Below are positions 5,197 through 7,927 of a stretch of 64,000 nt of DNA, one piece after another. The stretch comes from a virus (taxonomy: Duplodnaviria > Caudoviricetes). The DNA lies in the IMG/VR virus record IMGVR_UViG_3300033067_001375, positions 3,519 through 67,518 of that record; one strand, written 5' to 3'. Made by a program: the position numbers and the translations under genes. Below the pieces are notes generated by a model. It worked only from the letters and a program-made list of their open reading frames with translations, had not been told where the DNA came from and made no database searches. Within the stretch, counting starts at the first letter, position 1, and each line of letters opens with the position of its first letter.

Positions 5197-5769
5197 ATGA
5201 CCAAACGTGCGGGCAAAGGCTCGAAGAATAAACGGCGGTTGGCGCATGCGGAAGCGTTGACGGCGGACAATCTGAGCCCTGAGGAATCACTTGCACTTGA
5301 GCTTGAGGCCTTGCGGTCGGGTTGGCTTAACGGCTCACCAACGTTTGCAAAAACGCGTGAGGCGTTGCTACTCAAAGCAGCTACCAAGGCCTTAAACGGC
5401 AAGTGTGACGATCAAACGTTTATAAAGCTCATGAGAGCCATTGCCCAAACAGAGCACAGAGAGATAGCCCTAAGGCTACAGGCGGCCTCAATTAGCCTTA
5501 GGGCTCAAGGGAAAGGTGGCGATGATTTGCCAGAGCAGCGCGGCTTGCCAGAGCAAAGGGGCGGCTCAACCGTTGTGATCAACAACAACGTGAGCGGACA
5601 AGATACGGCGCCGGCTCAGGTGCCAACGTTCGAAGTGATTCAACAGTTGATTGCCAAAAGAGAAATACGCGATGCCGCCGATAGACGCCCCCAACATATG
5701 CGAGCTCTTGACGCCGCTGGACCTAGCCCAACATTGCAACCCCAAATTCCTACGGCCCCCGCACTTTGA
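5197..5769 (+). CDS. Putative terminase small subunit
   Basis: Helical protein directly upstream of and overlapping TerL; assignment is positional only. Confidence 0.5.
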   Translation: MTKRAGKGSKNKRRLAHAEALTADNLSPEESLALELEALRSGWLNGSPTFAKTREALLLKAATKALNGKCDDQTFIKLMRAIAQTEHREIALRLQAASISLRAQGKGGDDLPEQRGLPEQRGGSTVVINNNVSGQDTAPAQVPTFEVIQQLIAKREIRDAADRRPQHMRALDAAGPSPTLQPQIPTAPAL

Positions 5770-7927
5770 ACTATTGCAACGTGAGTTTCTTGAGACGTTA
5801 CAGCCAGAAGGTTGGGACGTTCTAATAGCTCAGGCGCCGCCCCGTCACGGCAAGAGTGAGTTTTTGTCCCGGTGGGTACCGTCTTGGTTTCATCTGACCT
5901 ACCCAACTGAGCGGTCAATTCTGACCTCTTACGCGCTTGACCTTGCACGCGATCACTCACGCGAAGTGCGCGATAGGGTGCATGAGTACGCGCCGCTATT
6001 TGGTCACCGTGGCATTGACCGAAAGGTGAGCGGTAATGCTGACTGGAAAATTGCAGACTACGGCGGCGGCATGAAAGCGGCCGGGATCCGTGGGGCGATC
6101 ACTGGGCGTGGTGCAAATCTGTTTTTGATTGATGACTACTTTAAGAATGACGAGGAGGCAGTCAACCAAACTCTCAGGGATAAGCAATGGTCTTGGTTTC
6201 AGACGACGGCAACAACGCGATTCGAGCCCGGTTGTAAGTTGATCGTGTTGGCTTGCCTCGTTGGTGATACGCCCGTCGCTATGGCTGACGGCTCAAGCGT
6301 GCCTATTCGTGATGTGCGGCCGGGCGATAGAGTCAAGACGTTTGACGACGGCCGGTTGGCTACTTCTGTTATTCGTAATCATGCCTCAGTTGGGTACGAC
6401 GACGTGTTCCGTTTGACGTTGCAATCGGGTAAAACGGTGACAGCAAACGCGCGTCACCCGTTTTTAGTTGCACGCAATGGAGCTTTGAAGTGGATCAGGC
6501 TGAGAAACTTGACTACCGGGTTGAGAATCGTAACAACAAAGGCCAGTGGGGTAAGTGGAAAGGGAAAACTTGCCAATGGGAAGGTTGCGAACGGCCGGCA
6601 AAGTGCCGTGGATACTGCCATCACCACTACGCGAAGAAACGCACGCTTGACGGCTACCGTGCCCCCTCTCACAATCCGGAATCTCACCGAAAATCAAGGC
6701 TCAAATATCGCTACGGCATTACGGTTGATGACTACAACGCGTTACTCAAAAAACAACGTGGCGTTTGTGCCGTATGCCGTCAACCGCCAAGCGAGCATAA
6801 CACACGCAAACACCAAGGCGGACGATTGTGCGTTGATCACTGCCATGACACTGGAAAGGTGCGAGCCCTCTTGTGCAACGATTGCAACCTTGCCGCCGGA
6901 TACATTAAGACCAGCGCCGCCGCCGCTCAGTTGGCTCGATACCTCAGAGTTTTTGAGCGACTCAATAGTAGCGATTGAGTTCGCCGGCCGGGCCGAAGTG
7001 TTTGATATTGAGATTGAAGGGACGGGCAACTTCATTGCGGCAGGAATGGTAAGCCACAATACGCGCTGGCATGAGGACGACTTGATTGGCCGAATACTCA
7101 AATACGCCCTTGAAGATTCTGAGGCGCCAATGCGTGTGCGTGAGATACGCTTACCCGCGCTAGCTGAGCCAACCGATGAACAGCCCGACCCACTTGGCCG
7201 GAAAACCGATGAGGCTCTTTGGCCTGAGCGTTACAGCACGGCCGCGCTCAAGGCTAAGCGGTCACTCATGGACGGCTATTGGTTCAACGCGATGTTTCAA
7301 CAGCGGTTGACTTCGCACGGGTTCAACGAATGGCCAAGCGAATATTTCTACGGCGTGATGGCTCAGGATGATGAGTGGCCCGATAGGTTCACGATGAGCG
7401 CAACGGCCTTGGATCCAAGCAAAGGGCGCGATGCCAAGAAAGGTGACTTCTCAGGCATAGTCACGGCCGGTTATCACAAAGGCTACATTTGGCTTGACTG
7501 TGACCTTGAGCGGCGGCCGGTTCCAAAGATGATGCGCGACTTGGTTGACTGGAACAACCAGCGACGGCCAACAGTTACAGGCATTGAAGCGGTTGCATTC
7601 CAAGAGCTCTTGGGTACTGACTACGTTCAAGCTCAGATTGAGGCCGGCGGCTATCGTGATGAGCCTGAGCTTATATACAACAACGTGTCAAAGAATCTTC
7701 GCATTGGCAGGATAGGGACGTGGCTCAGGTTGCATATGCTCAAGATCCGCAACACGCCCGGCGGCAAGCTCTTGCTACAGCAACTTAAAGAGTTTCCCAA
7801 CGCGAAGTATGACGACGGCCCCGATGCCGCCGAGATGGCCATACGGCTCTTGCTAACGCTGAGCGAAGCGTTGGCCGAAATCTTCGTTCAGGCCTCACCG
7901 ATGTATACCGAAAGAATTATCACGTAG
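5651..7927 (+). CDS. terL: Terminase large subunit, intein-containing
   Basis: Walker A PPRHGKS, Walker B LFLIDD, coupling motif LA|TRWHEDDL split by the intein, nuclease acidic motifs ALDPS and YDDGPDA. Start may be ATG 5672. Confidence 0.95.
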   Translation: MPKEKYAMPPIDAPNICELLTPLDLAQHCNPKFLRPPHFELLQREFLETLQPEGWDVLIAQAPPRHGKSEFLSRWVPSWFHLTYPTERSILTSYALDLARDHSREVRDRVHEYAPLFGHRGIDRKVSGNADWKIADYGGGMKAAGIRGAITGRGANLFLIDDYFKNDEEAVNQTLRDKQWSWFQTTATTRFEPGCKLIVLACLVGDTPVAMADGSSVPIRDVRPGDRVKTFDDGRLATSVIRNHASVGYDDVFRLTLQSGKTVTANARHPFLVARNGALKWIRLRNLTTGLRIVTTKASGVSGKGKLANGKVANGRQSAVDTAITTTRRNARLTATVPPLTIRNLTENQGSNIATALRLMTTTRYSKNNVAFVPYAVNRQASITHANTKADDCALITAMTLERCEPSCATIATLPPDTLRPAPPPLSWLDTSEFLSDSIVAIEFAGRAEVFDIEIEGTGNFIAAGMVSHNTRWHEDDLIGRILKYALEDSEAPMRVREIRLPALAEPTDEQPDPLGRKTDEALWPERYSTAALKAKRSLMDGYWFNAMFQQRLTSHGFNEWPSEYFYGVMAQDDEWPDRFTMSATALDPSKGRDAKKGDFSGIVTAGYHKGYIWLDCDLERRPVPKMMRDLVDWNNQRRPTVTGIEAVAFQELLGTDYVQAQIEAGGYRDEPELIYNNVSKNLRIGRIGTWLRLHMLKIRNTPGGKLLLQQLKEFPNAKYDDGPDAAEMAIRLLLTLSEALAEIFVQASPMYTERIIT
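6254..7060 (+). mobile_element. Intein (269 aa) in TerL
   Basis: Block A CLVGDTPVAMADGS, block B-like ANARHPFLV, block F VFDIEIEGTGNF, block G VSHN followed by Thr+1. Removing it restores KLIVLA-TRWHEDDL. Confidence 0.95.
6490..6978 (+). CDS. Endonuclease VII-type (His-Me finger) nuclease nested in the -1 frame of the intein
   Basis: CAVC...LCVDHCHDTGKVRALLCNDCN motif; N-terminal CQWEGC...CRGYCHHHY Zn motif; GGAG 7 nt upstream of GTG 6490. Confidence 0.88.
   Translation: MDQAEKLDYRVENRNNKGQWGKWKGKTCQWEGCERPAKCRGYCHHHYAKKRTLDGYRAPSHNPESHRKSRLKYRYGITVDDYNALLKKQRGVCAVCRQPPSEHNTRKHQGGRLCVDHCHDTGKVRALLCNDCNLAAGYIKTSAAAAQLARYLRVFERLNSSD

Follow-up and report, generated by a model that had tools for sequence, protein, structure and literature searches.

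A terminase intein of an uncultivated virus with a probable homing endonuclease gene overprinted in a second reading frame

Where is the homing endonuclease of an intein encoded when the frame that joins its two splicing lobes contains no recognizable nuclease? This question is posed by the large terminase gene (terL) of an uncultivated virus, represented here by a window of 64,000 nt that forms part of a 67.5-kb IMG/VR virus record (IMGVR_UViG_3300033067_001375). The terL open reading frame (ORF) spans 758 codons on the plus strand of the window (5651–7927; PHROG 38, 1.5e-79; Pfam Terminase_6N) and has an intein inside it, within which lies a second ORF in a different frame. The observations assembled below make it very likely that the element is a mobile intein in the C-motif of TerL (site TerL6-f) and that a distinct gene, overprinted on it, supplies the homing endonuclease.

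The class 1 intein, 269 amino acids in length (6254–7060, plus strand), matches Pfam Intein_splicing (PF14890) with 55.8 bits against a cut-off of 35.8. It is inserted in the ATPase coupling C-motif, between …KLIVLA and TRWHEDDL…, a site designated TerL6-f by Kelley et al. (2016; PMC5050341). It opens with CLVGDT, containing the N-terminal Cys nucleophile, and closes with …MVSHN, which is followed by the +1 extein residue Thr of TRWH. The N-terminal splicing lobe (residues 1–98; 6254..6547, plus strand; Intein_splicing) includes Cys1 in block A and an ANARHPF block B with H68. The C-terminal lobe (residues 231–269; 6944..7060, plus strand) was delimited by alignment, with the Intein_splicing match reaching the end of the profile, and contains block F, EVFDIEIEGTGNFIA, and block G, MVSHN. 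Residues C1, G4, T6, H68, and W80 are invariant in an alignment of 34 intein sequences, and the C-terminal HN is kept in at least 90% of them. In the structure predicted for the terminase frame both lobes exceed a pLDDT of 90, and the joined lobes match the mini-intein splicing domains of Ssp and Npu DnaB and Mtu RecA (Foldseek probability 1.0, target TM 0.78–0.89). Kelley et al. (2016) demonstrated splicing in a reporter for a homologous TerL6-f intein, that of gp6 from phage Chandler, and by analogy the intein of the window may be expected to splice as well. The segment between the lobes, residues 99–230 (6548..6943, plus strand), is a Thr/Ala/Ser-rich linker produced by reading the nuclease gene through in the terminase frame. 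A canonical bifunctional intein with an in-frame homing endonuclease was considered and rejected, because this segment has no family match in profile searches of Pfam and PHROG and, with a pLDDT below 50, is predicted to be disordered.

The nested ORF (6490–6978, plus strand) is read in the +2 (= −1) frame relative to terL, from a GTG start to a TGA stop, and encodes 162 amino acids. Its product matches Endonuclease_7 (PF02945; 67.8 bits against a cut-off of 23.6, E 7.7e-19) and the PHROG endoVII profile (1e-25), and consists of an N-terminal Cys/His zinc-finger-like module followed by an endonuclease VII/His-Me finger core. The CxxC (6766–6777), VDHCH (6832–6846), and CNDCN (6874–6888) motifs align to the zinc ligands and the catalytic Asp-His…Asn of T4 endonuclease VII (1e7d). 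An alignment of 34 relatives has 22 invariant columns, among which are all zinc and catalytic residues, including C93, C96, D116, H117, C129, C132, and N133. A sequence search of the PDB yielded a marginal match to T4 endonuclease VII alone (E 0.007), so that profile and fold evidence was relied on instead. The AlphaFold (AF2) model built on the 34 relatives has a mean pLDDT of 89.6, and its best PDB matches by Foldseek are three T4 endonuclease VII entries (probability 1.0, E 2.5e-3), followed by Hpy99I. Judged by profile and predicted fold, the nested ORF is an endonuclease VII-type His-Me nuclease. A preliminary description of this locus had proposed both a 269-residue intein splitting the TerL coupling motif and a 162-codon endonuclease VII-type ORF with intact motifs in its −1 frame, and the coordinates, frames, and motifs of both are borne out.

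The presence of two open frames is more than chance would provide. Both are open across the whole overlap, and the third frame of the same strand has 15 stops over the nuclease ORF. Among 163-codon windows drawn from the other long ORFs of the window, the offset frame is open in just 0.24%, close to an earlier estimate on the order of 1e-3. When the nuclease protein was re-encoded with the codon usage of the window, the terminase frame was open in 1.25% of 20,000 trials (mean, 3.3 stops), and under the most conservative null, which permutes the synonymous codons of the ORF itself, it was open in 8%; the window-specific nulls thus range from 0.0024 to 0.08. At all 14 of the 14 at-risk contexts, in which Leu, Val, or Ile precedes a codon beginning with A or G, the codon used avoids a stop, e.g., CTC AAA rather than CTG AAA.

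The frame in which selection acts was examined with 42 non-redundant homologous nuclease ORFs, aligned by codon. Mean pairwise nucleotide difference is 0.39, 0.36, and 0.62 at nuclease codon positions 1, 2, and 3, respectively. Because these correspond to positions 3, 1, and 2 of the terminase frame, the most variable position in the overlap is the second position of the terminase codon. The N-terminal lobe, which is coded in the terminase frame only, shows 0.34, 0.31, and 0.63 by terminase codon position. Amino acid identity over the overlap columns is 0.50 in the nuclease frame versus 0.27 in the terminase frame. Six independent close pairs differ at 251 sites, distributed 57/30/164 over nuclease codon positions 1/2/3; the nuclease frame has 138 synonymous versus 66 non-synonymous codon changes and the terminase frame 31 versus 167. 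The terminase frame is nevertheless stop-free in 42/42 loci, and the third frame in 0/42. This frame-specific pattern of variability and stops identifies the overlap as a nuclease gene alongside which the other frame is merely kept open: selection at the amino acid level acts in the nuclease frame only, and the terminase frame is constrained in the overlap only to lack stops. The proposals that selection was likely to maintain the extra frame and that the terminase frame serves as a tolerated linker devoid of nuclease motifs were thereby upheld, and the checks suggested for them, a comparison of frame constraint across homologous TerL inteins and structure prediction for both frames, came out as predicted, with the nuclease frame constrained and folded and the terminase-frame middle disordered.

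Signals that could direct translation of the nested gene are conserved as well. In essentially all loci the nuclease start codon lies at the same spot, where it is composed of the wobble base preceding the codon for invariant Trp80 plus the TG of that TGG. The first base of the start codon is A in 34/42 loci, G in 8/42, and C or T in 0/42, compared with a background of 15.5% A at third positions in the same genes. A GGAG Shine-Dalgarno (SD)-like motif is located 7 nt before the start in the window (6479..6482, plus strand), within Gly-Ala codons of the intein frame. GGAG occurs at this distance in 26 of the 42 loci, and an SD-like motif in 37; across loci it is written in Gly-Glu, Gly-Val, or Gly-Ala codons, and GGA accounts for only 10.8% of Gly codons in these genes. 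RNA around the nuclease start has no significant local structure (z-score 0.77), with no sign of ribosome-binding site occlusion or a regulatory hairpin, and a search upstream of the nested ORF for internal sigma-70-like promoters found none beyond chance. The window does contain a slippery heptamer, G_GGA_AAA (6562–6568), in the correct phase for a −1 frameshift, but almost none of the 42 homologues has it at the corresponding position, and frameshifting was rejected as a general route for this reason. With the SD motif and start conserved, the heptamer not conserved, and neither RNA structure nor promoter found, internal initiation on terL mRNA is the best-supported route, and the nuclease would appear to be made in this way.

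We infer from these features a scheme in which the terL mRNA is read two ways. Straight read-through in the terminase frame would yield a precursor in which two class 1 HINT lobes are joined by a disordered linker of ~130 amino acids, and protein splicing would remove all 269 residues, restoring …VLA-TRWHEDD… and an active terminase. A minority of ribosomes would start internally in the +2 frame, at GGAG-N7-GTG (6479–6492), producing the nuclease as a free 162-residue protein. This nuclease might then act on co-infecting phages whose terL has no intein, cutting the gene within or close to the conserved sequence that codes for the C-motif, after which recombinational repair would copy the intein and the nuclease gene together. 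The placement of the signals may also carry an evolutionary message. On this reading they are built into the splicing domain at synonymous sites, the SD falling in the Gly-Glu codons that specify a conserved turn and the start overlapping the invariant Trp codon. If so, intein and nuclease gene would form one ancient co-adapted unit, with the nuclease dose set by internal initiation on terL mRNA, that has spread over phages of at least seven bacterial phyla. The case for this reading is, in our judgment, evenly balanced.

The element is by no means unique to this virus. More than 60 independent loci have exactly this layout; they come from cultured phages of Gordonia and Mycobacterium, from IMG/VR contigs, and from genomes or metagenome-assembled genomes (MAGs) of at least seven phyla, and the +2 offset was found in every complete homologue examined. 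A search of cultured phages at the DNA level (blastn) gave no match. With the intein protein, tblastn retrieved the Gordonia phages Angelicage, Affeca, Sedona, and Keitabear as the best cultured matches (36% identity, 100% coverage), and further full-length matches in Fosterous, Vivi2, and their relatives (34%) and in the Mycobacterium phages Pipefish, Phlyer, Athena, and Chandler (32.7%). Six-frame translation revealed the +2-frame endonuclease VII ORF in Affeca, Fosterous, Phlyer, AlanGrant, and Chandler, and the GenBank records of the cultured homologues annotate only “terminase” over it. An IMG/VR scan with the nuclease protein identified 80 loci, ~43 of which consist of an N-terminal lobe in frame f, the nuclease in f−1, and a C-terminal lobe in f; the remaining, more distant matches are free-standing genes matching the catalytic core only. 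A scan of prokaryotes (one genome per species, intein alignment as query) identified 20 loci, and 19 have the nested layout. These belong to Chloroflexota (Anaerolineae and others), Alpha-, Beta-, and Gammaproteobacteria, Actinomycetota, Bacillota, Verrucomicrobiota, and Desulfobacterota, and include Oleiphilaceae, Endozoicomonas, Kistimonas, Gallionellaceae, Sulfuritalea, Bradyrhizobium, Caulobacteraceae, Microbacteriaceae, Mycolicibacterium, Oribacterium, Dysosmobacter, Clostridiaceae, Opitutaceae, and Geobacteraceae. One terL intein with a nested nuclease lies in a contig binned as “Candidatus Iainarchaeum archaeon” (L174; PWLL01000067.1), which is probably of phage origin and was placed in an archaeal MAG by a binning error. 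The nuclease also has a long variant (~185–196 amino acids, in an intein of ~300), in which an extra N-terminal Cys-rich repeat, C..EGC.RP.R…KC..C, precedes the module shared with the window; it is carried by loci L014, L018, L022, L024, L027, L030, L032, L035, L038, L040, L042, L045, L046, L086, and L087.

The distribution of the intein among terminases is sporadic. The 21 closest terL relatives in IMG/VR (L088–L108) are free of it, the N- and C-exteins being joined directly, with 0 nt between them. This exact junction supports the intein boundaries, and an empty site of this kind in the closest relatives fits acquisition by homing. The closest of the 21, L088, is 56% identical in the N-extein and 67% in the C-extein, and the other intein-free relatives are 35–47% identical. 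The 3′ flank, ACNCGNTGGCAYGARGAYGAC, is conserved in alleles with the intein as well as in those that lack it, and the first ~21 nt of the C-extein are presumed to be the conserved half of the homing site. The nearest relatives of the window intein reside in terminases that are just 30–38% identical, and splicing-domain identity exceeds that of the flanking exteins in 94% of 666 pairs. The Gordonia phages Affeca (L001) and Fosterous (L002) have exteins that are 99% identical, splicing domains that are 79% identical, and nested nucleases that are only 46% identical, a contrast that points to replaced alleles or to separate invasions within a single phage genus. Stages of decay are also represented, by L169 (1674–2231), in which a stop interrupts the nuclease frame and the terminase frame is intact, and by L187 (1501–1944), a mini-intein of 148 amino acids without the nuclease region in a Desulfobacteraceae MAG. 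A different intein of 332 amino acids occupies the same C-motif site in L153 (2005–3000); its N- and C-terminal lobes are 29% and 50% identical to those of the window, and it has a weak in-frame LAGLIDADG_3 match with a GFMVGDG motif and no endonuclease VII ORF. Together, distribution, identity patterns, and decay stages are consistent with a homing cycle.

Such a cycle also predicts stages at which an intein is fixed and vertically inherited and its nuclease frame has lately been freed from selection, so that the nested ORF of this particular virus could be an inactive relic. The decay seen in L169 and L187, together with the failure to find a near-identical intein-containing relative of the window, is compatible with that idea. 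The window copy nonetheless retains all 22 family-invariant residues, the start codon, and the SD, and its nearest terL relatives are all intein-free, a setting in which a homing nuclease would still be useful, so that a relic is unlikely. If instead programmed −1 frameshifting occurred at the heptamer described above, the product would be a fusion of N-extein, N-intein, and nuclease rather than a free protein. Besides the rarity of the heptamer, which in the window is in the right phase, this proposal has to contend with an upstream ATG or GTG and SD that are conserved through the choice of wobble bases, and with the conserved N-terminal 25 residues of the nuclease, which would be skipped; no stimulatory structure was seen, none having been sought. 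Frameshifting is therefore very unlikely to be how this nuclease is made.

The nuclease might also serve the phage rather than the intein, as a terminase-associated HNH packaging factor or an endonuclease VII-like junction resolvase lodged in the intein. In some phages cos cleavage is aided by HNH proteins encoded beside the terminase, and T4 endonuclease VII resolves branched DNA before packaging. The closest terL relatives, however, all lack both intein and ORF at this site, all close full-length relatives of the nuclease occur together with the intein, and near-identical exteins carry very different nuclease alleles; because this is the pattern of a selfish element and not of a core function, a role in the phage life cycle is highly improbable. 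That the layout is an assembly or indel artefact, the real element being an ordinary intein with an in-frame HNH domain, is a general possibility to which two contigs lend some color. L010, which looked like an in-frame fused variant, carries a pair of indels, including one within the N-extein, and in L033 an indel lies close to where the intein begins. Their exteins are broken too, however, which marks them as poor contigs. No genuine homologue with a single fused frame was encountered, and none of the findings named beforehand as speaking against the overprinted arrangement holds. In the window two compensating indels would be required, the nuclease has its own stop, and the same offset recurs in more than 60 independent assemblies, finished phage genomes among them, so that the chance of an artefact is negligible.

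Several points weigh against a mobile intein with an overprinted, internally initiated nuclease. Translation of the nuclease and DNA cleavage by it are predictions for the window and for every family member, those of a 2025 preprint discussed below included. The best intein match of the window virus is 48% identical and no closely related intein-containing allele was found, so that this particular copy may or may not have moved recently. The pooled counts overstate independence, since the loci are phylogenetically related, and the structural match to T4 endonuclease VII covers the core only (TM ~0.3, E 2.5e-3). Finally, the start codon in the window is GTG and that of most relatives ATG, and initiation internal to a translated ORF is usually inefficient.

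The preliminary description had regarded the architecture as undescribed, which proved incorrect: a preprint (bioRxiv 10.1101/2025.01.02.630785) describes homing endonucleases that lie between the splicing blocks and are encoded by the strand of the intein but in reading frame 3 with respect to it, and proposes that a free-standing endonuclease gene invaded an intein. The phages it names, Angelicage (“Angelicase” in its spelling), Affeca, Keitabear, and Sedona, constitute the best cultured matches of the window (intein 36% over 100%, nuclease 46%) and share with it the TerL host, insertion site, strand, +2 offset, nuclease family, and unstructured in-frame middle. Unlike these actinophages, the window virus is uncultivated and its exteins are not actinophage-like. 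The preprint surveyed PhagesDB only and does not discuss start codons or ribosome-binding sites; the wobble-encoded layer of signals, in both its mechanistic and its evolutionary aspects, is absent from it. The TerL6-f inteins of cluster B3/B4 mycobacteriophages, including Chandler gp6 (Kelley et al., 2016), are likewise homologous to that of the window (32.7%, full length), interrupt the same ATPase coupling C-motif, and contain the same nested ORF; a search of that article's text found no reference to endonuclease VII, and to HNH only in connection with other proteins.

More distant parallels exist. For the cyanobacterial dnaX intein, endonucleases in an overlapping or antisense arrangement date from Gorbalenya (1998, as cited). 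The dnaX intein resembles that of the window in having an overlapping, separately encoded homing endonuclease with the same frame-dependent pattern of selection, and differs in its LAGLIDADG nuclease, its dnaX host gene, and its cellular rather than phage setting (Phillips et al., bioRxiv 10.64898/2026.09.14.751524). Its nuclease, encoded out of frame or antisense, was proposed to reflect secondary invasion of a mini-intein (Phillips et al.). Fractured genes, in which a free-standing Vsr-like endonuclease gene lies between the halves of a split intein, also place a nuclease gene of free-standing type at the endonuclease-domain position, but there the host gene is broken in two, each part being an ORF of its own, and the splicing is in trans (Dassa et al., 2009; PMC2677866), whereas the terminase frame of the window is continuous and splicing is predicted to occur in cis. 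A split intein or fractured gene was rejected here, since a single 758-codon ORF spans both lobes in the window, as a single ORF does in 42/42 loci. Hidden HNH insertions of the ShiLan type, located in the methylase genes of phages (Arsenault et al., 2025; PMC11855218), share with the window an out-of-frame HNH gene, a GTG start, and an open host ORF; they have no splicing domain and the insert stays in the host protein, whereas in the window the intein would remove it. One terminase locus among those collected, L049 (TerL_ATPase/TerL_nuclease type; host ORF 103–2493), has an Endonuclease_7 ORF (1026–1649) nested at +2 between its two domains with no detectable intein splicing blocks, and looks like a ShiLan-type insertion in terL.

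The window thus adds a non-actinophage example to a recently described organization of mobile inteins, and the present analysis adds the conserved, wobble-encoded start signals, codon-position evidence from more than 40 loci, and the distribution across phyla. The layout is widespread in phages and prophages of many phyla, nested genes of this kind are missed by annotation pipelines, and the family lends itself, as a compact system found in nature, to work on dual coding and on initiation within a gene.

As for the host gene, the N-extein (5651..6253, plus strand; PHROG 4758/38, Terminase_6N) comprises the ATPase part up to the C-motif, ending in …KLIVLA, and the C-extein (7061..7927, plus strand; PHROG 38) extends from the +1 Thr of TRWHEDDL through the nuclease domain of the terminase. 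The C-extein is 27–29% identical to terminases of Brucella, Microcystis, and Rhizobium phages, and the terminases that the exteins resemble are those of phages infecting Gram-negative bacteria and cyanobacteria rather than those of actinophages, which suggests that the virus is probably not an actinophage. A tRNA scan of the window found none. The terL start codon is uncertain, TTG 5651 and ATG 5672 being the candidates. An upstream ORF of 190 amino acids (5197–5769) overlaps the listed TTG start by ~120 nt; the true start may be ATG 5672 or later, and the upstream ORF may encode the small terminase.

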